DNA from: an uncultured virus (IMG/VR IMGVR_UViG_3300042898_001580)
Taxonomy: Duplodnaviria > Heunggongvirae > Uroviricota > Caudoviricetes > Crassvirales
IMG/VR virus record: IMGVR_UViG_3300042898_001580
DNA: 64,000 nucleotides
Strand: one strand, 5' to 3'
Part shown: positions 2,139-55,431 of the stretch, in pieces
Layout: every line of letters begins with the position of its first letter
Position numbering within the stretch: the stretch's first letter is position 1
The notes under the pieces: model-generated
What the model saw: the letters and a program-made list of their open reading frames with translations, nothing else
Told to the model about the DNA's origin: nothing
The model's database searches: none
Program-made: the position numbers and the translations under genes

Positions 2139-2948
2139 ATGGATGTGTATAAAAGATTACAAGAAATTAGAAGTACTGCCAAAGGTGGTCAAAATTTTAG
2201 TTTTTCAAAAGAAGAATGTGATAAATTTTGGGAGTTATATACTAATAATCTTAGTATAAGAAAAATTGCTAAAGCTATGAATTGTAAACCTGGAAAAATT
2301 CAGGCTATTGAAAGAAGATTAAAGTTACCAAAAGTAATATACTTTCAATCCCAAAAAGAACTTATCTTAACTGAAGAAGAAGAAGCAGTAATAATAGGTA
2401 GTTTATTAGGGGATGGTCATATAACTAAATCAACTAAAAATAGAGTTAACGGAAGATTTACTTTTTCTCATTGTGAATGGCAAAAAGATTATTGTTTGCA
2501 TAAAAAGAATTATTTAAATAGATTAAAATCTGGAGAATTAACATGGTATAATTGTATTATAAAATCTACTGGAAGTATTAATCCAACAATTACTTTTACT
2601 ACATTTTGCCATCCTAAATTTAATGAAATAAGAAATATATTTTATCCAAATGGTAAAAAAATAATTCCAATAGACTATATTAGGGATAAATATACAGCAC
2701 AATCTTTAGCAATGCATTATTTAGATGATGGTCATAAAAGAACTGGGTCTAAAAGAAGTAGAATGATTTGTACAGATTCTTTCCCGCCAGATAATTTACA
2801 GGAGTATTGTGATTTTATAATAGAAAAATTTGGAATTAATGTATTTATAATAGATAAAAATAGAGTTAGAATAGATTATAGAGATAGTGAAAAATTTGTA
2901 AATTTAATAGCCCCTTATGTACCAGAATGTATGAAATATAAATTATGA
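2139..2948 (+). CDS. Free-standing LAGLIDADG homing endonuclease with N-terminal HTH
   Basis: Two LAGLIDADG-like helices (IIGSLLGDGHI; LAMHYLDDG), C-terminal PYVPECMKYKL; HTH-like LSIRKIAKAMNC. Confidence 0.85.
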   Translation: MDVYKRLQEIRSTAKGGQNFSFSKEECDKFWELYTNNLSIRKIAKAMNCKPGKIQAIERRLKLPKVIYFQSQKELILTEEEEAVIIGSLLGDGHITKSTKNRVNGRFTFSHCEWQKDYCLHKKNYLNRLKSGELTWYNCIIKSTGSINPTITFTTFCHPKFNEIRNIFYPNGKKIIPIDYIRDKYTAQSLAMHYLDDGHKRTGSKRSRMICTDSFPPDNLQEYCDFIIEKFGINVFIIDKNRVRIDYRDSEKFVNLIAPYVPECMKYKL

Positions 2949-4879
2949 TTAAAATTTACGATATAGAACTCTACAAAAACTTTTTTTGTATTAATTTTAT
3001 AGGATTAGATAAAGTAAAACATTCTTTTGTTTTATATGAAAATAGAAATGAGCAAGGAGATGTTGTAGATTATATAAATCAAATTCCGCAGTTATTAGAG
3101 TTTTTAAAAGATGTTACAGGTTTAGTAGGGTTTAATTGTTTGAAGTTTGATAGTCAAGTATTAAATTATATTCAAAAGAACCCTACTGCTACTATACAAC
3201 AGATATATAACGCTGGACAAAAAACATTTGAAGATAAATTCTATCCTGAAAAATCTTTAATTCCTAATTTAGATTTATTTAAAATTCATCATTATGATAA
3301 TAAAAATAAATCTACTTCTTTAAAATGGGTTGAATTTAGTATGAATATGTTAAACATACAATCTTTACCTATTGAACCAAATAGTGAAATTAAACCCGAA
3401 GAAGTTGATAAGCTAGTTGAGTATTGTTATAATGATTGTGAAGCTACTCTAGATTTTTATTGGTTAACAAAAGGTCAAACTGAACACCCTGTATATAAAG
3501 GAGTTGATGCTATTCAATTTAGAAAAGATATTCAATCTAATTATGGTATATCTTGTTTAAATTACAATGATGTTCAGATTGGTATAGAAATAGGTTTAAA
3601 ACAATATGTTCAAATTTCTAAAAGAAGAAAAGAGTATGTAGAAAAGTTACGTACTTTTCGAAAAGAAATTAATATATCAGATTGTATAGAAAACAATATT
3701 AATTTCCAATCAGAAACATTTCAACTATTTTTAAAACATCTTAAAACTTTAAAAATAAAACCTCAATCTATTAAAGAAGAAGAAGGTTTTTCTTTAAACT
3801 ATAAAGGAGTTTTATTTACATTTGGCTGGGGAGGTTTGCATACAGAAGATAAACCAAGGCAAACATTTAAAACAGATAATACACAAATCATTGATTGTGA
3901 TGTAATTAGTTATTATCCTAGTGCTATTATAAATAGGGGTTTATATCCAGCTCATTTAGGAAAAGAATTTGTTGAGGGGTATAAACAGATTTTTCAACAA
4001 AGAGTAGAAGCTAAAAAGTTATCTAAAACTGATAAATCTTACCAATCTGTTAATGAAGCTTTAAAATTATCTCTAAACGGTACTTATGGTAAAACTAATA
4101 GTGAGTATAGTTATTTATATGACCCTTTAGTTACATTTAAGGTAACTGTAAATAATCAACTTTGTTTATTAATGTTATGTGAAAAGTTATTAGATAATAA
4201 CATTAATTTACTTAGTGTAAATACTGATGGGTTAGTTTGTCAAATTGATAACAATCAAGAAGAACTATATTATAGTATTTGTAAAGAATGGGAAGAATCT
4301 ACCAAGTTTCAATTAGAGTATGCTTTTTACAATAAATTATTACAAACTTCTGTAAATGATTATATAGCTGAAAAAACTAATGGTGAATTAAAATTTAAAG
4401 GTGATTTTGAGTATGATAAACATTTACATAAGAACAATTCAGCAAGAATAGTACCATTAGCTTTAAAAGAATATTTTATTAATAGTGTTAATTATATTGA
4501 ATTTATTAGAAATCATAAAAATATATTTGATTTTTGTATTGGTGTAAAAGCTAAGGATTATTTAGATATAAGGTTATATTTTTATGAAGATGGTAAAGTT
4601 CAATATACTCAAATTAAAGAAAAAGTAGTTAGATATTATGTTTCTAAATATTATACAACTATTAAAAAAGTATATAATAAAGATGTTCCTATTAAAAAAG
4701 GTTTAATTAAAAAGGGCAAAGTTCTTAATCTTGAAAAAGGATATAATCTTACTTATTTTAATAAGTTTGAGAAAAAAGATAATTATAATATTAATTATGA
4801 ATATTATATTGAAAGAGTAAGAAAGATTGTAAATCAAATAGAACAAGATTCTAAAGCTAATCAATTAACATTATTTTAA
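2945..4879 (+). CDS. polB: DNA polymerase, family B (crAss-like)
   Basis: Exonuclease motifs YDIE, GFNCLKFD, YCYND; polymerase motifs DVISYYPS, KLSLNGTYGK, NTDG. Confidence 0.92.
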   Translation: MIKIYDIELYKNFFCINFIGLDKVKHSFVLYENRNEQGDVVDYINQIPQLLEFLKDVTGLVGFNCLKFDSQVLNYIQKNPTATIQQIYNAGQKTFEDKFYPEKSLIPNLDLFKIHHYDNKNKSTSLKWVEFSMNMLNIQSLPIEPNSEIKPEEVDKLVEYCYNDCEATLDFYWLTKGQTEHPVYKGVDAIQFRKDIQSNYGISCLNYNDVQIGIEIGLKQYVQISKRRKEYVEKLRTFRKEINISDCIENNINFQSETFQLFLKHLKTLKIKPQSIKEEEGFSLNYKGVLFTFGWGGLHTEDKPRQTFKTDNTQIIDCDVISYYPSAIINRGLYPAHLGKEFVEGYKQIFQQRVEAKKLSKTDKSYQSVNEALKLSLNGTYGKTNSEYSYLYDPLVTFKVTVNNQLCLLMLCEKLLDNNINLLSVNTDGLVCQIDNNQEELYYSICKEWEESTKFQLEYAFYNKLLQTSVNDYIAEKTNGELKFKGDFEYDKHLHKNNSARIVPLALKEYFINSVNYIEFIRNHKNIFDFCIGVKAKDYLDIRLYFYEDGKVQYTQIKEKVVRYYVSKYYTTIKKVYNKDVPIKKGLIKKGKVLNLEKGYNLTYFNKFEKKDNYNINYEYYIERVRKIVNQIEQDSKANQLTLF

Positions 4880-5059: not shown

Positions 5060-5533
5060 ATGAAAACATTGAAGATTAGTGAACAAGACGCTAAGAAGTA
5101 TTATTTAACAGCTTCTGATGAGTTTAAAACAGTACTTGAGTCAACATTTGGAAAGGAGTTTTTCAACCAAAAGATTACAGATAGAGTAAAATGTTGGCAA
5201 GATGTAGTTGACATATTAGAAGAACAAGGCGAAGATGTTGTATTGCCTTACAAGGTAGCTAAAACTAAGCAACAAAAGTCTATTAATGCTGTATATAAAA
5301 TACAATGTATTACAAAGGTATTAAATGAAGGTTGGGAACCAGATTTTAGTAATAGTAATGAATCCAAATATTATCCTTGGTTTGAATATAAAAAGTCTGG
5401 CTGGTCTCTTCACTACGTGGTCTGCCACTTCGTTTGTGCTCATTTTCCTTTTGGTTGTTACTATAAAACCAGAGATTTAGTAGAATATAGTTCTAAAGTT
5501 TTTATTGATATTTATAAAGAGTATTTACCATAA
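5060..5533 (+). CDS. DGR target protein 1 (contains VR1)
   Basis: 157 aa; 3' part matches TR1 with adenine-only mismatches; paralogous to target 2 (YK-Q-I---N--W-P-----N--KYYP-F). Confidence 0.9.
   Translation: MKTLKISEQDAKKYYLTASDEFKTVLESTFGKEFFNQKITDRVKCWQDVVDILEEQGEDVVLPYKVAKTKQQKSINAVYKIQCITKVLNEGWEPDFSNSNESKYYPWFEYKKSGWSLHYVVCHFVCAHFPFGCYYKTRDLVEYSSKVFIDIYKEYLP
5395..5456 (+). repeat. DGR variable repeat VR1
   Basis: 62-nt ungapped alignment to 5550-5611; 15 mismatches, all opposite TR adenines. Confidence 0.93.
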
Positions 5534-5700
5534 GTTTATATAAGTGTATGTATAGCTAGTCTCTTAACTACGTGAACTACAACTACGTTAATGCTAATTA
5601 TCCATTTAGTTTTTACTTTGGGTTTTATATAAACTTTTCCTATTGGAAGAAAATCAAGAAACTTAAACAAGTTTTGGTAAAGAAATTGAAGAAGATTGTA
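5532..5700 (+). ncRNA. DGR template RNA 1 (closing stem, TR1, 3' spacer)
   Basis: 12-bp inverted repeat 5532-5543/5625-5636 encloses TR1; followed by TTCC-TATT-GGAA hairpin, TTTGGTAA and TGAAGAAGAT, all mirrored around TR2. Confidence 0.75.
5550..5611 (+). repeat. DGR template repeat TR1
   Basis: Intergenic, AAC/TAC/AAT-rich copy of VR1 directly upstream of the RT gene. Confidence 0.93.
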
Positions 5701-5710
5701 ATTAAGTAAC

Positions 5711-6682
5711 ATGAAAAGAATAGGAAATTTATATAATCAAATAGTAAACTTAGATAACCTTTACAAAGCTGAATTAAAAGCTAGGAAAGGTAAATCTAAT
5801 AAACCTTATGTTAAAGAGTATGTAAATAGATTAGATGAGAATATTCAAGAGCTTTATTTGGAACTAAAAAATAAAACTTATAAAACTTCTGAGTATTCTC
5901 ATTTTATCATATACGAACCAAAAGCTAGAAATATAAATAAGCTTCCTTATAAAGACAGAATTGTACATCATAGTCTGATGAATATATTAGAACCTATATT
6001 TGTAAAATGTTTTATAAGTCAGACATATTCTTGTATAAAAGGTAGAGGTATCTTGAAATGTCTTAATACATTAACTAAGTATCTTAAAGTAAAAGAAAAT
6101 AGATTTTGTTTAAAGCTAGACATAAAGAAGTTTTATGAGTCAGTTAATAACGATATTTTATTAAAAATGTTAAGAGCTAAATTTAAAGATAAAGAGTTAA
6201 TAATACTTTTAGAAAATATTATATTATCTATAAAAGGTTTACCTCTCGGTTCATACACTTCACAATGAATGGCTAATTTCTATTTAAACAACTTTTTACA
6301 TTGGCTAAAGGAAGTTAAAAGAGAAAAGTGTATTTTACTTTACTGCGATGATTTAATTGTGTTAGGAAGTAACAAGGCACATTTACACCAGTTAAGAAAA
6401 GAAATACAAGAATATCTATTTATTAATCTTAAATTAGAGTTATCTAATTATCAAGTATTTCCAGTAACAAAAGGTATAGATTACTTAGGGTATGTAAGCT
6501 ATCCTACACACATAAAAATCAGGAAATCAATAAAGAAATCTTGGTTATTTATGTTAAAAGCTTACCCAAATTATAAATCAAAAGCTAGTTTTAATGGCTG
6601 GCTTTGTCATGCAAATACAATTAATTTACAAAACAAATATTATGGACAAAAAACAAGCATTAAAAGAATTAAAGGAACTTAA
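5711..6682 (+). CDS. DGR-type reverse transcriptase, 323 codons, interrupted by in-frame TGA at 6266-6268
   Basis: Track ORFs 5711-6268 and 6269-6682 are one frame: MKRIGNLY, PYKDRIVHH, KLDIKKFY, GLPLGSYTSQ*MANFYL, catalytic YCDD, GIDYLGY. Confidence 0.9.
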
Positions 6683-7085
6683 AGACAGGGCTAATAAACT
6701 AGAAGCTATCATAAATGCTCCTGAAAGTTTAATCGGTAGTATTACTACATATAAACAAGTATGTAAAGCTTTAGATATTGAAGAGCTTACATTATCAGAT
6801 TTTAGCTTTTTGCCTACAGAAGATAGGAAGAAAACTTTAGCTTTTTATAAACTTCAACAAATAGCTAAATTATTTAATGGAGATTGGAAACCTAATTGGA
6901 AAAATAGTAACCAATATAAATATTATCCATATTTTAATTTGGATTCTGGTTGTCTTAGTTTCTATGTTTCTATCTTCTACTACTCTTTCTGTTATTCTTC
7001 TGTAGTTTACTTCAAAGACATAGAAACTTCAGATTATGTAGGTAAAACTTTTTTATCTATTTACAGAGATTTTAACGAAAATTAG
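6642..7085 (+). CDS. DGR target protein 2 (contains VR2)
   Basis: Start probably ATG 6642 (MDKKQAL), overlapping RT end; paralog of target 1; 3' part matches TR2. Confidence 0.9.
   Translation: MDKKQALKELKELKDRANKLEAIINAPESLIGSITTYKQVCKALDIEELTLSDFSFLPTEDRKKTLAFYKLQQIAKLFNGDWKPNWKNSNQYKYYPYFNLDSGCLSFYVSIFYYSFCYSSVVYFKDIETSDYVGKTFLSIYRDFNEN
6937..7004 (+). repeat. DGR variable repeat VR2
   Basis: 68-nt ungapped alignment to 7106-7173; 11 mismatches, all opposite TR adenines. Confidence 0.93.
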
Positions 7086-7090
7086 TAATA

Positions 7091-7261
7091 AGGGCTTATA
7101 ACATTATTTAGATTCTAGTAGTCTTAGTTTCTATGATTCTAACTACAACTACTCTATCTGTAATTCTAATGTATTTTATTAAGGTAGTTATAAGCCCTAT
7201 CCTATTGGATAAACATAAAACAATTTAAAACAGCTTTGGTAACACTTGTGAAGAAGATGTA
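7091..7261 (+). ncRNA. DGR template RNA 2 (closing stem, TR2, 3' spacer)
   Basis: 12-bp inverted repeat 7091-7102/7187-7198 encloses TR2; ATCC-TATT-GGAT hairpin, TTTGGTAA and TGAAGAAGAT at the same spacing as in RNA 1. Confidence 0.75.
7106..7173 (+). repeat. DGR template repeat TR2
   Basis: Intergenic adenine-rich copy of VR2; different sequence from TR1 but shares AACTACAACTAC. Confidence 0.93.
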
Positions 7262-7275
7262 TTTAATAAACTAAA

Positions 7276-9336
7276 ATGAATAAAAGGTCAGAAATTCAAG
7301 CAGAAGCTGTTCAGGCTATAATTAAAAATGATTGGAGACACATTTATGTAATGTCCCCACGTTTCGGCAAGAGCAAAACATTTTTAGATTCTATAAAAGA
7401 TAAAGGTAATAGAAGTATAGCTATAACTGCTCCTTATAATTCTATTTTAGAAAGTTGGAAAATTGAGTTTGTAAAATGGCAATTAGAATTTGAACCTTTG
7501 CTTTTAAACCAAAGAAGTCTGGAAGAACTTCCTGAAAATATAGATTTACTTTGTTTAGATGAAATTCATACCCTTAGCCCAGCTCAGATACAAACTATTA
7601 AAAGAAAGAATCCAAAAAGAATTTTAGGTCTTACTGGAACTATTTCTCAGAAAAATAGAATTAAGTTGAGGCAGGAGTTAGGGCTTAAAGTAGTATTTGA
7701 ATTTTCAATAGAGCAAGCCATAGAACATGGAATTATATCTGACTATGAAATATTTATAAAAGAAGTTACATTGACTCCTGAAGAAAGAATAGCTTACAAT
7801 AAACTTACTAAAACTTTTGAATACTTTAAGATGCTATCATTCTCTGATGCTAAATATGTGCATGTAAAGAACAATGCTGCATTAAAAAGAGCTCAGTATA
7901 TCTATAGATTAGAAAGTAAATTAAAAGCAGCACAGAGCCTTATAAAGCCTTTAAAGAGAGTATTAGTATTTACTACACTAACTGAAGTAGCTGATAAACT
8001 CTGTAAACATTCTTATCATAGTAAATCTAAAGAAGATAGTTTAGAGTTATTTCAAAAGAAGAAAGTAAATAAACTAAGTTGCATTGGCATGTTGAGTATG
8101 GGTGAATAAAAATGCCCATGTAAAACCACTTAAATTGACGGGAATCCCCTTAGAGCTTTACACACTCCCTATAGCAGTAATGACTATAGTATAGTAAAAG
8201 AGGTAAAGATTGGACAATCCGCAGCCAAGACTCCCAATGGGAGTAAGGTTCAGAGACTAAACAGGTGGTTCTGTAAATGAAAATTTAAAATTAGAGGATT
8301 TCCGAGAGCCGTTAGCAAGCTCTCCAATGTAAGAACGGTTGATATTTAAAGCTATAGCGGCCTCTCCTACAGAATTATACTTAGTATATTTTGTACCAAG
8401 AATATGATATATAGGTTTATTACAAGCTTCTCTGGTTCTTTGCACACGTAAGGTAGAGTAACTATATTTTTGTTTATGTACTTTATAAGAATAATCTGTT
8501 TTTGGATCATATTCTTTTGTATACACATAAATAAATTTTTTAGCTGCTCTTTTATCTTGGGCAATATCAGAAATTCTCTCTCCCTTTTGTTTTGAGAATT
8601 TAGACGCTTGTGTTATAGAGTCAACTTGTTTTAAAAGATTTCCTTTTAAATCTAAAATAGTTATAGGTACTCCTACTTTTTTAATTTGGGAATCACTTAC
8701 TTTTTGTTTAAATTCTTCACCATAACTATATGTATAATAATCTTGCTCAACTAAAGCAGTATTTGTAAGTCTTTCTCCTGCATTGATATAGGAAATAATT
8801 AATTGTTTTTCTATTATTCCCGTGTTTCTTAGTAGTACTTTATTCCCTACTATTTTAGCACTCGTATCTATGTAAGAAAATAATAATTCAATTTTGGGAT
8901 TAATACCTTCTTGTAGAAGAAGATTTACCCATTTTGTTTTATAGTTTTTATTAGGAGTATACTTACTTTCACCAATGTGTTGAGACAATCTTTTATACAA
9001 AGGATTTATAGTTCTGCCTATGTAGCGAACTTTATTAGATTTTGGGCAGATTAAAGCATAAAAATAAACTAACATTTACAGAAAAGATATAGTCCGATCT
9101 TCGTAGAGATACGAAGCTAACATGAAATGGTTACATTTCCAAACTTAAAACAAGCAGTTGTACATCAAATACAATCTAATGAAGAGTTACAAGTACAGAA
9201 AATACTAAGGACTTGTAATCTTGAAGGAGATAAGAAAGCTCAGATTTATATTACAGTAGCTAAAGATACTCAAGATGAAGTTTGGTTAGCTAGTGCCCTT
9301 CAGGGGACAGATTCAAAACGTATAAAATACATCTAA
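7276..9336 (+). CDS. Superfamily 2 helicase, spliced: exons 7276-8103 and 9130-9336 (344 aa)
   Basis: Walker A SPRFGKS, DEIH, LTGT; joining the exons gives in-frame LSMG|VTFPNL (motif V-like) and QKILR (motif VI-like). Confidence 0.88.
8104..9129 (+). mobile_element. Group I self-splicing intron
   Basis: Exon ends in U pairing in P1 (ATGGGT/GCCCAT 8114-8119); P AAATTGACGGGAA 8132-8144, Q AATCCGCAGC 8216-8225, R GTTCAGAGACTA 8248-8259, S AAGATATAGTC 9084-9094; P9 with GAGA loop 9099-9116; terminal G. Confidence 0.92.
8257..9075 (-). CDS. Intron-encoded GIY-YIG homing endonuclease (antisense to host gene)
   Basis: VYFYAL...RYIGRT...RLSQH N-terminus; C-terminal NUMOD1/IENR1-like repeats (DSITQASK, NSVGEAAIAL). 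Confidence 0.88.
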   Translation of the reverse strand: MLVYFYALICPKSNKVRYIGRTINPLYKRLSQHIGESKYTPNKNYKTKWVNLLLQEGINPKIELLFSYIDTSAKIVGNKVLLRNTGIIEKQLIISYINAGERLTNTALVEQDYYTYSYGEEFKQKVSDSQIKKVGVPITILDLKGNLLKQVDSITQASKFSKQKGERISDIAQDKRAAKKFIYVYTKEYDPKTDYSYKVHKQKYSYSTLRVQRTREACNKPIYHILGTKYTKYNSVGEAAIALNINRSYIGELANGSRKSSNFKFSFTEPPV

Positions 9337-23918: not shown

Positions 23919-24187
23919 AACAAAATGAACTTGGAGCTATAAGAGATTTCTTTGGATTTAAGAATATGTCTATAGGTCAACTAGCTGGTATAGCTAAGTA
24001 TCAAGGAACAACTGATTATAAGTATGTATTAGGCTATAAGATTAAAGAAAAAGAGTTCTTTAAAGCACGTATATCAAGGTTTAAATGGAGTAAGTATTTT
24101 CTTGATAAGAGAGAAGCAGCCATTGCTGTAGATAAGAAGTTAATAGAAAAGGGTAAAGAACCTGTTAATATTTTGAGACGTTGTTAA
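23912..24187 (+). CDS. Small AP2-like DNA-binding protein
   Basis: YKYV...FKARI...KYF.DKREAAIAVD...GKEPVNIL. Confidence 0.6.
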   Translation: MVEQNELGAIRDFFGFKNMSIGQLAGIAKYQGTTDYKYVLGYKIKEKEFFKARISRFKWSKYFLDKREAAIAVDKKLIEKGKEPVNILRRC

Positions 24188-25396
24188 AAATCAACTTCAG
24201 AAGTCAACACTCCTACCAATGTAGGCAGCTCATTCTGATTTTTCCTACCTACTCCAGGCAAGTAATTCTTTAAGGCAAAGTTTTTAATATTAATAGCAGC
24301 ATTAATATCTCTATCATGTATAGAATTACATGACTTACAAGTCCATTCTCTATCTGATAAGGTTAATGTTTTATTAGTAGCACCACAGTTAGAACATATT
24401 TTAGAAGAAGGTTCAAATTGACCTATTCTAATTATATTTTTACCGTACCACTCAGCTTTATATTCTAACATTCTATTAAATTCAGACCAACTTACATCGG
24501 ATATTGCTTGAGCAAGTTTATGGTTTTTAATCATATTCTTCACTTTTAAAGTTTCTAAACAAATAGTATCGTGGTTCTTGATAATATCTGTAGATACCTT
24601 TTGGAGAAAATCTTTTCTTTGGTTAGCTACGTATTCATGTTGTAATCTTAATTGATGTAAGGTTCTTTTACCTTTGTATTTAGAGTACTTTTTATTTAAA
24701 TATTTAAGTTTAGATAACCCTTGTTTTAAATACTTAGGATTAGCTACTTTACCCCCTTCTGAAGTAGTTAAAAAATCTTTAATACCTAAATCTATACCAA
24801 TAGATTTATCTGGATTAATAGGCAATTTATCAGGTGTAATTTCTAATGTATCTACTAATATGCTTACAAAGTATTTATCAGTAGATGTTTTAGATATAGT
24901 AGCTGATTTTATAGTACCTTTAATTTCTAAAGACTGCTCTACTTTAATACCTTCCTTAAATTTAGGCAAATACAATTTATTTTTTAATTGGATATTTTGA
25001 CAAATATTAAAAGAATTATTGGTACGTTTATTTTTATATCTTGGATATTTTGTGTATCCTTTATAAAAAGATATAAAAGATTTTTCTAAATTTATTAAAG
25101 AAATTTGTAAGGGTTGAGAATTTACTTCTTTTAACCATGGGCACTCTTTCTTTAAATCTGGGAGCTGTTTCATTAAGGTAAACGCTCCTAAATTGGTTTT
25201 ATTAGTATTGTAAGCTATTTGTTTTACCTCTAAGCCTAAGTTATATACAAATCTACAAGCTCCAAAATGCTTATTTAAAAGTATTTCTTGTTTTTTAGTT
25301 GGATATAATCTAAATTTATAAGATTTAAACATAATAGTATAACGTGTGATTTTATAGAAAGTTACAAAAATGTATAAAAACTAAAGAAAAATGAAA
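24173..25396 (-). mobile_element. IS200/IS605-family element, tnpB only (IS1341-like); ends inferred
   Basis: Lone - strand gene in a + strand operon; 3' hairpin GTTG...CAAC then TCAA (plus-strand TTGA 24173-24176); left boundary uncertain (about 25373-25396). Confidence 0.55.
24184..25332 (-). CDS. tnpB: TnpB RNA-guided endonuclease
   Basis: YKFRLYPT HTH, GIDLG, CLETL, CSNC/CKSC zinc finger, DRDINAAINI; RuvC D-E-D intact. Confidence 0.95.
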   Translation of the reverse strand: MFKSYKFRLYPTKKQEILLNKHFGACRFVYNLGLEVKQIAYNTNKTNLGAFTLMKQLPDLKKECPWLKEVNSQPLQISLINLEKSFISFYKGYTKYPRYKNKRTNNSFNICQNIQLKNKLYLPKFKEGIKVEQSLEIKGTIKSATISKTSTDKYFVSILVDTLEITPDKLPINPDKSIGIDLGIKDFLTTSEGGKVANPKYLKQGLSKLKYLNKKYSKYKGKRTLHQLRLQHEYVANQRKDFLQKVSTDIIKNHDTICLETLKVKNMIKNHKLAQAISDVSWSEFNRMLEYKAEWYGKNIIRIGQFEPSSKICSNCGATNKTLTLSDREWTCKSCNSIHDRDINAAINIKNFALKNYLPGVGRKNQNELPTLVGVLTSEVDF

Positions 25397-54460: not shown

Positions 54461-55431
54461 TATAATAATCTACTTACAGGGTTATTTAATGCAACACTTC
54501 TTGGTTGGTTCCAAATCTGTTGAGGAGTTTGTAGGTGACCAAAGAATGAATTATGCTCAAAGAATCTTGGAAGTAGTTTAACACGAGAGTTCTTTAAAGA
54601 TTCCCATTCATCCATTGATTGAGGCATTTTAGCTTCAGCACGTGCTTTTCTAAACCATAACTGATGGTTAGCTTGGAAATAACTTAATTTAGTTTCTGTG
54701 TATTTATCAGTTAGAAATAAGTTAAAAGCAATCTTTTCAGCACAAAACCATTTAAGGTATTCTATTACTGATTGTGTATCAGGTACTAAAGGTAAACCAT
54801 TCTCATCTAAAGGTACAGCTCTGTATGCCATACATACTTTACCTTCTTTGAAAGAAGTAAATATGTAGTTGTTGTTTACTGTATAAGTAAGGTCAGAATT
54901 AGCCCGTACATCTAAGTCACAATTATGGTAACCCTTAAAGAATGTATGTGTAGCCCAACGCATTGGGTGTAGAGTTAATGTAGTACAAGGTGAATCTTTA
55001 CAACAACCTTGACATCTTTGGTCTGAACCTATATGGCAGTTACAATCTGTAAACTGATTACATAGTGCTGAACCATCTCCAAGAGTACATTCAGTACCTG
55101 TTTCTATATCATAGTAAGCTATACCTGATAAAACGTAAGGAGGATTAAAAGGACTTCTTCTTTCTTCAGCTCTTGCTGTTTGAGTTATAGAAATAAGGTC
55201 ATAAGGTAATTCTCCTCTACCATCAACTATATCTATCAGAGGTAAATGTCCTAAAGCTAGGTTACCATCTGTTAGTTTATCTACATAATACCTTGGTTGT
55301 TTTAACCTGCGTAAGCCATCACCAATCCATTGTACCACATCAGCTACTTGTAGTTGGTAGTCATAAGATTTAAAATCACGGAAAAGCTCATTCATTATAT
55401 ATGATGAGCTTACATATTTACCATTATACAT
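54460..55431 (-). CDS. Tail ring (tubular) protein
   Basis: YIFTSFKEGKVCMAYRAVPLDENGLPLVPD motif; adjacent to stabiliser. Confidence 0.7.
   Translation of the reverse strand: MYNGKYVSSSYIMNELFRDFKSYDYQLQVADVVQWIGDGLRRLKQPRYYVDKLTDGNLALGHLPLIDIVDGRGELPYDLISITQTARAEERRSPFNPPYVLSGIAYYDIETGTECTLGDGSALCNQFTDCNCHIGSDQRCQGCCKDSPCTTLTLHPMRWATHTFFKGYHNCDLDVRANSDLTYTVNNNYIFTSFKEGKVCMAYRAVPLDENGLPLVPDTQSVIEYLKWFCAEKIAFNLFLTDKYTETKLSYFQANHQLWFRKARAEAKMPQSMDEWESLKNSRVKLLPRFFEHNSFFGHLQTPQQIWNQPRSVALNNPVSRLL

Follow-up and report, generated by a model that had tools for sequence, protein, structure and literature searches.

Can a single reverse transcriptase (RT) serve two template repeats (TRs), each with a variable repeat (VR) and a target gene of its own? 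This question is raised by positions 5060-7275 of the 64,000-nucleotide stretch of DNA analysed here (the window). The cassette is located in the replication arm of a freshwater (lake-water) crAss-like phage and contains two target genes and an RT gene only; all features of the cassette are on the plus strand. An earlier note on this DNA had read the locus as a diversity-generating retroelement (DGR) with the order target1(VR1)-TR1-RT-target2(VR2)-TR2, and this order is borne out both by the map of open reading frames (ORFs) and by the positions of the repeats. Thus, two TRs with their own VRs accompany one RT within the 64-kb window, in keeping with the definition of a multi-TR DGR (at least two TRs with their own VRs, and one RT). 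No avd gene was found in the cassette, and no Pfam match of this kind was obtained for the neighbouring genes tested. We consider it highly probable that the locus is a genuine avd-less DGR consisting of two self-contained modules around one RT. Each module comprises a small target with a C-terminal VR, a private TR, and a structured RNA scaffold.

The phage is organized in two arms of opposite orientation that include giant ORFs (1168-3766 aa), and its DNA polymerase matches phrog_1252 at 9e-137. Placement among the crAss-like phages is suggested by indirect signs, namely the origin of the nearest named RTs (Suoliviridae), the phrog_1252 assignment of the DNA polymerase, and the two-arm layout.

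VR1 (5395-5456; codons 112-133 of the 157 codons of target 1) aligns without gaps to TR1 (5550-5611) with 15 mismatches in 62 nt. VR2 (6937-7004; last third of target 2) aligns in the same manner to TR2 (7106-7173) with 11 mismatches in 68 nt. As the earlier note had claimed, every mismatch is opposite a TR adenine (15/15 and 11/11), which is the pattern that characterizes DGRs; the changes affect 15 of the 19 adenines of TR1 and 11 of the 20 adenines of TR2. As expected for a DGR, both VRs are located in the 3' part of a protein-coding gene. In both pairs, about 5 nt of additional homology is present 3' of the core, past a single non-A mismatch (VR1 G5457 / TR1 T5612; VR2 G7005 / TR2 T7174). 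With this extension, the homology reaches position 5462 in VR1, 5617 in TR1, 7009 in VR2, and 7178 in TR2.

To evaluate chance similarity, each TR was slid along both strands of the 64-kb window, mismatches at A being tolerated. Over the padded length of 73-77 nt, non-A mismatches numbered 3-5 at the true VR and at least 20 at the second-best position in the window. A chance origin of the TR/VR pairs is excluded. No further VR was found for either TR in the 64 kb, on either strand. TR1 and TR2 were confirmed to be different sequences, identical at 33 of 73 positions and with a 12-mer in common (at 5575 and 7141). Each TR corresponds to its own VR only, the comparisons of TR1 with VR2 and of TR2 with VR1 giving 29/71 each and no cross-match. 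Inspection by eye of the regions 3' of the VRs revealed no convincing IMH-like hairpin.

Target gene 1 (5060-5533) encodes a 157-aa protein from an unnamed phage family, with VR1 near the C-terminus, that matches phrog_11581 at 7.9e-20. Target gene 2 (6642-7085) encodes a paralog of 147 aa that matches the same phrog at 3.3e-14. The start codon of target 2 is most likely the ATG at 6642 rather than the upstream ATG at 6594, which overlaps the RT gene, because the related proteins also open with this MxKKxA... helix. Over 87 aa, the identity between the two targets is 34% (E 1e-14). No Pfam family was found for target 1. Its AlphaFold2 model has a pLDDT of 90.4, and the best matches to the PDB were an E of 0.76 with Foldseek and a Z of 4.2 with VIA-align, which implies neither a new fold nor a departure from the C-type-lectin or Ig-like folds of DGR variable proteins. 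The matches in BFVD and the ESM Atlas were to uncharacterized phage proteins only.

Each target is a member of a different paralog lineage, both lineages being shared with other multi-TR phages (bootstrap/aLRT of 98/89 and 98/94), the lineage of target 2 being common to the relatives L033 and L060. This distribution indicates that the RT-less modules are old and maintained, and not decaying. The duplication of a target-and-TR unit proposed in the earlier note is not recent, in view of the 34% identity of the targets, the old separate lineages, and scaffolds that are no closer to each other than scaffolds from different phages.

Both TRs are enclosed by a duplex that is followed by further helices. 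In the first module, the 5' strand of duplex P1 (5533-5544), which begins at the last base of the target 1 stop codon, forms 12 contiguous base pairs with the 3' strand (5624-5635). Next come hairpin P2 (5637-5648; 4 bp, loop TATT), an A-rich run (5649-5667), and helices P3/P4 (5668-5698), which display conserved GGTA and GAA loops and end 12 nt before the RT start codon. In the second module, duplex P1', identified by the anchored helix test, also consists of 12 contiguous base pairs (7091-7102 with 7187-7198). It is followed by hairpin P2' (7199-7210; 4 bp, loop TATT), an A-rich run (7211-7229), and helices P3'/P4' (7230-7260), which end 15 nt before the start codon of a helicase gene (7276). 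Since the sequences of P1 and P1' differ, the 12-bp helix has been kept by compensatory change. The enclosing duplexes were assessed by an anchored contiguous-helix test against 197 decoy windows per module; a helix as long as 12 bp was found in 2/197 decoys for TR1 and in 0/197 for TR2. The test was clear in the multi-TR clade, and contiguous helices of 4-6 bp were obtained for most of the single-TR loci, which have a higher G+C content and bulged helices. Comparison of duplex energies with mononucleotide shuffles was not significant in several AT-rich modules, including that of TR1 (z = 0.0).

A covariance model designated R1 matched scaffold RNA 1 (5606-5713) with 72.6 bits (E 2.4e-11) and scaffold RNA 2 (7165-7278), which is located downstream of the RT gene, with 63.5 bits (E 1.3e-09). 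These were exactly the two strong copies detected over the 64 kb, in addition to one weak match (E 0.031). RNAalifold analysis of 26 post-TR regions predicted 11 pairs with at least one compensatory double change each; in the consensus of these 26 sequences, compensatory changes were present at all 4 pairs of P2. The identity between the two scaffolds of the window is 0.61, for a between-genome mean of 0.56. Co-evolution of scaffolds inside genomes was not seen, with an identity of 0.60 within genomes versus 0.56 between them.

The scaffolds resemble the Rfam RT-17 RNA (RF03020), which is also a structured RNA located directly upstream of RT genes. RT-17 is one of the motifs RT-1 to RT-19 of Weinberg et al. 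2017 (PMC5737381), who proposed for such motifs a role in DGRs like that of RT-10 in BPP-1. Both scaffolds of the window scored below the RT-17 gathering score of 40.4 bits (scaffold 1, 19.3 bits, E 0.22, at 5632-5712; scaffold 2, 30 bits, E 0.0078, at 7194-7285). The match of scaffold 2 to Rfam RT-14 (35.6 bits, E 0.026) was likewise under the gathering score. The RT-17 gathering score was reached in 4 of 14 related loci (L012, L015, L061, and L080). The window scaffolds are probably homologous to RT-17 since the R1 model ties them to loci that reach this threshold.

The RT gene (5711-6682; 323 codons) is not an intact reading frame. It harbors a TGA at 6266-6268 (codon 186), overlooked in the earlier note, which is immediately followed by an ATG (6269-6271). 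Read through this TGA, the RT matches RVT_1 at 6.7e-19 and phrog_1423 at 2.4e-101. The enzyme is of the DGR type, as it is encoded beside a TR and carries the GxxxSQ motif (G-S-Y-T-S-Q) before the stop. The TGA precedes the YxDD catalytic motif, which is kept as YCDD in the part that follows; the latter is open over 137 codons in a genome of 31% G+C. An RT profile built from 83 sequences (82 homologs and the RT of the window read through) gave 267.6 and 165.0 bits for the two halves. Among 405 six-frame pieces of the 64-kb window, the profile matched just these two fragments, in agreement with the claim that the window contains one RT only.

Codon 186 specifies Y in 77 of the 82 homologs and F in 5; the next codon, ATG in the window, specifies L or F in the relatives. 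None of the 82 homologs is split at this position. The 62 other ORFs of the window (18,578 codons) contain 197 TGG codons and no internal TGA, so that the TGA of the RT gene is the sole one among 63 frames. TGA terminates five ORFs in the window, two of which are engaged in ATGA start/stop overlaps. Genetic code 4, in which TGA is a sense codon, was rejected on the basis of this sole internal TGA and of the five ORFs ended by TGA. The TGA in the RT gene is also present in two independent assemblies, X2 and X3. No tRNA gene, including suppressor tRNA genes, was found in the window. A premature TGA in a genome that uses TGA as a stop indicates that the element is either freshly inactivated or dependent on read-through or restart. 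An interrupted RT of this type also calls for caution in automatic DGR calls, which would register the locus either as lacking an RT or as an active element; neither outcome is safe.

The layout recurs in related genomes. RT relatives were confirmed in two collections (271 and 373), and most of those examined had TR/VR pairs. In 161 loci scanned for adenine-specific repeats, one TR was detected in 128, none in 27, and several in 6; two VRs were present in 97 of the 128 single-TR loci. The multi-TR loci comprised the window itself (L001), L003, L004, L033, and L095, with two TRs each, and L060, with three. L003 and L004 are near-identical, and the layout is hence found in four distinct relatives, one of which has three modules. 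Among 89 sources, extra R1 scaffolds were found in exactly the multi-TR loci, and another 96 sources yielded none. A single TR with a single scaffold is the arrangement in about 180 other loci of this RT family. The RTs of the multi-module relatives are only 54-58% identical to the RT of the window, and conservation of the layout at this level of identity argues for one RT acting in trans on several template RNAs. The record nearest to the window is identical to it over 8,969 bases. A metagenome scan for closer strains yielded no RT above 57% identity, and a scan with the RT of L060 yielded no new multi-TR relative.

Variation of VR1 and VR2 was absent from the contigs of four lake-water runs where these repeats were covered, contigs being unable to show minority variants. 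Low-depth contigs of X3 and X4 partly end inside the VRs, which is no evidence of variation. The relatives L003 and L004 originate from two samples and have an intact RT. Over about 3.2 kb, they differ only by 6 substitutions and one 3-nt indel, and every one of these differences is located in VR1, the VR upstream of the RT gene. All six substitutions (6/6) are at TR1 adenines. The VR downstream of the RT gene, VR2, is identical in L003 and L004; as this is the sole informative pair, activity of the downstream module has been seen in no relative. The claim that one RT runs two mutagenesis channels is supported as regards the single RT in the 64-kb window and the two private TRs, and is weakened, as regards operation of the channels, by the premature TGA and by the lack of VR variation in contigs.

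We propose that the cassette would be transcribed as target1-TR1-RT-target2-TR2 and that the RT would recognise the scaffold shape common to both template RNAs, acting on TR1 in cis and on TR2 in trans. The enclosed TR would then be copied with errors at adenines. With TR1 and TR2 just 45% alike, each cDNA would home by sequence identity to the cognate VR only, and the two paralogs would be diversified independently.

The interpretation of the TGA determines whether this scheme could operate at present. The RT may have been knocked out by a nonsense mutation, leaving static VRs that are kept only as ordinary genes, and we assign this explanation a probability just short of even. It accounts for a single in-frame TGA that has no equivalent in the 18,578 other codons of a genome using TGA as a stop, for the presence of this TGA in independent assemblies, and for the identity of VR1 and VR2 in the contigs of four samples; L003 and L004, with their intact RT, do differ at VR1. 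However, the frame is still open over the 137 codons past the TGA, with 165 bits and the YCDD motif kept, no non-adenine mismatch is present in either core repeat, and both scaffolds are complete. In addition, the ATG right after the stop, where the relatives have L or F, would permit restart. Read-through of UGA by tRNA-Trp inserts Trp, and would give an aromatic residue where the relatives have Y or F. The TGA-ATG junction may alternatively be functional, rare read-through keeping the RT at a low level or restart giving two fragments that assemble. The immediate succession of stop and ATG, the departure of both junction residues from the family consensus (Y/F then L/F), and the good conservation of both RT halves are consistent with this possibility. 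A precedent is provided by in-frame stops in RT genes of crAss-like phages, the excerpted text of PMC12386605 describing amber suppression in seven Zeta RT genes. Regulation or splitting of the RT nonetheless appears unlikely, since the window has no suppressor tRNA and no other gene with an internal TGA, unlike recoded phages, and since 0/82 homologous RTs are split at this position. To our knowledge, there is no natural split DGR RT. Overall, we regard activity of the element at present as somewhat doubtful.

A further explanation concerns the second module, which could be a relic: target2-TR2 would be left over from a second DGR that lost its own RT, and the remaining RT would not serve TR2. 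The register in which scaffold 2 reaches the start codon of the following gene is that in which scaffold 1 reaches the RT start, as expected if the whole unit up to an RT start was once copied, and VR2 is invariant between L003 and L004. Against a relic, the restriction of the VR2/TR2 differences to adenines (11/11) indicates that there was no drift, and scaffold 2 retains all helices (63.5 bits) together with a perfect 12-bp enclosing duplex. Moreover, four distinct relatives retain RT-less modules, two of which are present in one relative, and the old lineage that includes target 2 and the targets of L033 and L060 indicates long maintenance without a private RT. We therefore consider a relic very unlikely and favor two self-contained modules around one RT. 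An extension of the favored reading combines an array of cassettes served by the RT, small non-virion targets, and a throttle formed by TGA-ATG; taken jointly, these propositions are improbable. In a lineage of crAss-like phages, one RT would act in trans on an expandable array of portable cassettes, each with a target, a private TR, and a scaffold; two to three cassettes are seen, and the shared RNA shape would be the sole thing recognised. The targets, encoded among replication genes, would be soluble proteins of small size that are not part of the virion and belong to an unnamed family with no detectable structural relative. They could bind host factors or defence proteins in an adjustable manner, and not act as receptor-binding proteins. 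The TGA-ATG junction would limit mutagenesis, either because read-through is rare or because the enzyme consists of two pieces, rather than being damage.

The DGR of BPP-1 (mtd-VR, avd, TR, spacer RNA, brt) and the cassette of the window share the adenine-specific transfer from TR to VR and the location of a TR upstream of the RT gene. According to the accessible part of a preprint (bioRxiv 10.1101/2023.10.23.563531), cDNA synthesis in BPP-1 needs a 'cPRT Stop' consisting of a TR-flanking duplex, a short stem-loop, and unpaired adenosines. Both modules of the window display these elements in the same order, a TR-enclosing duplex being followed by a short stem-loop and then by adenosines, with a putative role in priming or termination. 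Unlike in BPP-1, the distance between the TR and the 3' strand of the duplex is only about 6 nt, and the priming site would therefore have to be elsewhere. The cassette of the window also differs from that of BPP-1 by the lack of avd, by the presence of two TRs with two scaffolds, of which one follows the RT gene, by targets that are proteins of 147-157 aa of the replication arm instead of a tail fibre, and by a shorter (323 aa) and interrupted RT. DGRs devoid of avd are usual in crAss-like phages, as stated in the available portion of PMC12386605.

The suggestion that the layout might be undescribed does not hold for the class, since multi-TR DGRs are on record in surveys and in a crAss-like phage, as far as the accessible parts of these sources indicate. 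Of the 271 multi-VR DGRs in PMC6642488, one TR is present in 216, and hence 55 have more. With the wordings searched for, no passage on several TRs per RT was found in the main text of Wu et al. 2018 (PMC5758913) or in Roux et al. 2021 (PMC8144416), and the supplements of either article may list cases. In the portions available, the published multi-TR reports count TRs without analysis of private scaffolds, and modules flank the RT in the window, unlike in the published cases. The Lera DGR, as described in part of its source, has avd and large C-type-lectin tail-fibre targets, whereas the cassette of the window has small targets and no avd. Substitutions at sites other than adenines are present in the second and third pairs of Lera, which were suggested to reflect past activity, whereas the pairs of the window are purely adenine-specific. 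The layout is thus real and a variant of already reported multi-TR DGRs, its present activity being uncertain.

If the RT truly acts in trans on these modules, a minimal portable DGR-template unit would be defined by the scaffold, with a length of about 110 nt and a further 12-nt strand upstream, and would be directly useful for multiplexed DGR-based directed evolution, and DGRs could grow by adding cassettes and not by re-using one TR. The targets, which are small, encoded in the replication arm, and devoid of a Pfam family or structural match, broaden the range of hypermutated proteins, and these traits suggest that DGR variation in phages has a role inside the cell.

The nearest named RTs, with 44-47% identity, are those of the gut crAss-like phages (Suoliviridae) cr52_1, cr55_1, and cr56_1 (NC_055888, NC_055869, and NC_055890). 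These phages share with the window the scaffold RNA directly upstream of the RT gene (R1, 47.5-51.2 bits) and the lack of avd. They differ in that a single TR and a single scaffold accompany one large target, a tail protein of the structural module that is annotated as 'similar to sulfatase, major tropism determinant'.

Base-by-base, ungapped comparison reproduced the mismatch counts of the earlier note for the two repeat pairs of the element, which is organized within 5060–7275 in the order target 1 (VR1), TR1, RT, target 2 (VR2), and TR2. VR1 (5395–5456) differs from TR1 (5550–5611) at 15 of 62 nucleotides and VR2 (6937–7004) differs from TR2 (7106–7173) at 11 of 68 nucleotides. In both pairs, mismatches are located exclusively opposite TR adenines, 15 of the 19 adenines of TR1 and 11 of the 20 adenines of TR2 being changed, a pattern that cannot be due to chance. 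The proposal that each TR matches only its own VR also held. Sliding each TR over both strands of the 64-kb window, with tolerance for adenine mismatches, returned the known VR as the sole place found, the next best place containing at least 20 non-adenine mismatches. The cross-pairs TR1/VR2 and TR2/VR1 each share 29 identical bases out of 71. TR1 and TR2 are identical at 33 of 73 positions and have a 12-mer in common (at 5575 and 7141). In each pair, the first mismatch on the 3′ side of the adenine-mutated core is a G in the VR facing a T in the TR (5457/5612 and 7005/7174), beyond which 4 to 5 bases match before homology stops. This site may mark where homing acquires its directionality (IMH versus IMH*).

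Each target gene and its TR form a module with an RNA scaffold. The sequence after TR1 can be aligned with that after TR2 and with its counterparts in relatives. From this alignment of 26 sequences, RNAalifold predicted 11 base pairs in three helices, with compensatory double changes in all 11. A covariance model built from the same alignment, designated R1, strongly matched two places in the 64 kb, scaffold 1 at 5606–5713 (72.6 bits) and scaffold 2 at 7165–7278 (63.5 bits). A weak third match (54829–54922, minus strand, 25 bits, E 0.031), located inside a virion-gene ORF, is probably due to chance. The flanks of each TR pair perfectly over 12 nt (5533–5544 with 5624–5635 for TR1; 7091–7102 with 7187–7198 for TR2). 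The sequences of the two enclosing helices differ, and a helix as long was found in 2 of 197 decoy windows for module 1 and in none of 197 for module 2. In both modules, the flanking duplex is followed by a 4-bp hairpin and an A-rich run. This order matches that of the 'cPRT Stop' in the RNA of the BPP-1 DGR, an element needed for cDNA synthesis (bioRxiv 10.1101/2023.10.23.563531). The Rfam counterpart of the scaffold is RT-17, whose gathering score (40.4 bits) was reached in 4 of 14 related loci and not by the scaffolds of the window (30 and 19.3 bits). The window differs from the RT-17 motif (Weinberg et al.) by the presence of one scaffold copy on each side of the RT.

Confirmed relatives of the RT were detected in viral contigs (271) and in metagenome contigs (373). 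The best 80 of each collection were kept and searched with a purpose-written scanner for repeat pairs spanning 40 nt or more and having no more than one non-adenine mismatch, which were tallied if they contained at least eight adenine mismatches. Among the 161 loci scanned, in which duplicates are counted because the collections overlap, 27 contained no pair (most of these are cut near the RT), 128 contained one TR, and six contained several TRs. The multi-TR layout, which the earlier note had suggested looking for in related genomes, was recovered. The six loci are the window's own sequence (L001), two near-identical loci (L003 and L004), two loci whose RT lies between two modules (L033 and L095), and one locus with three modules (L060). 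In 97 of the single-TR loci the TR was associated with two VRs, in 17 with one, and in 14 with three, indicating that RTs of this family typically accompany two tandem small targets served by one TR. Of 89 sources, 87 have an R1 scaffold immediately upstream of the RT; the other two, L071 and L078, start at the RT and gave no match. Additional copies were confined to the six multi-TR loci. Exactly one copy was found in each of 96 further sources. Three named gut Suoliviridae genomes each have one copy and one large tail-protein target. In the single-TR relative L143, one of three VRs (3838–3899) is located downstream of the RT and is served by the upstream TR, a different way of solving this layout problem.

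The earlier note proposed that a target-plus-TR unit had been duplicated and had diverged. Target 1 (5060–5533) and target 2 (6642–7085) are indeed paralogs (34% identity, E 1e-14), but a recent duplication is not supported. Among 41 target proteins placed in a tree that has many long branches and whose bootstrap did not converge, target 1 grouped with the upstream target of L095 and with L081 (98/89), and target 2 with the downstream targets of L033 and L060 (98/94); the position of targets relative to the RT was not conserved across phages. Scaffolds were no more alike within genomes (identity of 0.60) than between genomes (0.56). Together, these results indicate that the modules are old and have persisted without an RT of their own, which speaks against a decaying relic as well as against a recent duplication. 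The modules also appear to have been reshuffled.

Both targets match phrog_11581 (function unknown), and neither matched a Pfam family; no consistent Pfam family was found among 113 target proteins. The model of target 1 obtained from the alignment of these proteins was confident (pLDDT 90.4, pTM 0.81) and comprises a helical N-terminal part, a β-hairpin (residues 103–122), a loop modelled with low confidence, and a pair of helices at the C terminus. VR1 (residues 112–133) corresponds to the second strand of the hairpin and the loop. Comparison of the model with the PDB gave a best E of 0.76 with Foldseek, VIA-align gave a best Z of 4.2, and matches were restricted to uncharacterized phage proteins in BFVD, several from crAss-like phages, and to clusters of hypothetical viral proteins in the ESM Atlas. 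The phage genome consists of two arms, a plus strand carrying replication genes (DNA polymerase phrog_1252, 9e-137; helicases; primase; Sak4-like annealing protein; rIIA/rIIB) and a minus strand carrying virion genes and giant ORFs of 1168 to 3766 aa. The DGR is located between the DNA polymerase and helicase genes, away from tail genes. The small size of the targets and this location argue against a tail-fibre role. Among named RTs, the closest are those of gut crAss-like Suoliviridae (44–47% identity). The sequencing runs containing the stretch are labeled lake-water or freshwater metagenome.

Under table 11, the RT is split into two ORFs (5711–6268 and 6269–6682) by a premature TGA at codon 186, which the earlier note had missed. 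Read through, the 323-codon frame matches Pfam RVT_1 (6.7e-19) and phrog_1423 (2.4e-101). Reading of TGA as a sense codon (code 4) was rejected, since across 18,578 codons in 62 other ORFs of the window TGG occurs 197 times and TGA never internally, and since TGA closes five ORFs, including two in which it forms part of an ATGA start/stop overlap; the phage thus reads TGA as a stop. The codon, which is located upstream of the YCDD motif, is also present in the X2 and X3 assemblies from lake-water runs. The 137 codons past it form an open frame that scores 165 bits against an RT profile. The TGA may be a very recent knockout. Alternatively, leaky read-through may operate and would insert Trp at an aromatic site (Tyr in 77 and Phe in 5 of 82 homologous RTs); no tRNA genes were found within the 64-kb window. 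Termination followed by restart may instead generate a two-piece enzyme; an ATG stands directly after the TGA, at a position occupied by Leu or Phe in relatives.

No evidence of activity was found for the window phage itself. The contigs from four lake-water runs, which are blind to minority variants and may originate from one campaign, contained no letter differing from the window sequence where the region was covered (nearly the whole region including both VRs in X2; all of VR1 and VR2 to 6970 in X3; all of VR2 in X5). Over about 3.2 kb, L003 and L004, from two samples, differ solely by six substitutions and one 3-nt indel. All of these changes fall within VR1, and the six substitutions are all at TR1 adenines, which is direct evidence of DGR activity in a relative. 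The VR2 copies of L003 and L004 are identical; a downstream module was thus nowhere caught diversifying. The indel (L003 3725) is in-frame and is not a change that a DGR is expected to make. Present activity of the element in the window genome is conceivable, although we lean slightly against it.

The likely novelty of the multi-TR class did not stand. One survey lists 53 DGRs with more than one TR (PMC11661182), and another reports a single TR in 216 of 271 multi-VR DGRs, so that 55 have more, with a Stenotrophomonas DGR as a two-TR example (PMC6642488). For the crAss-like phage DGR Lera, which has several TR/VR pairs, non-adenine changes are described in two of the pairs (PMC12386605). A limited literature search returned no description of a private scaffold per TR, of modules flanking the RT, or of the target family of the window. 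The element is most likely a DGR that lacks avd, is built of modules with separate templates, and has small target genes located within the replication arm. It is a variant, new in the literature searched, of a class that is already known.

A LAGLIDADG homing endonuclease gene (2139–2948, 1.9e-28) overlaps by ATGA the start of the DNA polymerase gene (2945–4879). A helicase-like gene (7276–8109) precedes an RNA resembling a group I intron (Rfam Intron_gpI, 8070–8384, 37.2 bits, below the gathering score of 50), a 3′ piece of which was matched at 9083–9114. A GIY-YIG/NUMOD1 homing endonuclease ORF (8257–9075) lies on the strand opposite to the helicase-like gene, of which a second exon may be located near 9127. 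A transposase-like gene (24184–25332, phrog_506, 1.1e-117) is on the minus strand within the plus-strand replication arm. Finally, four giant ORFs of 1584, 3766, 1168, and 1520 aa occur in series on the minus strand (28225–54460), of which only the last matched a PHROG, that of a virion structural protein.
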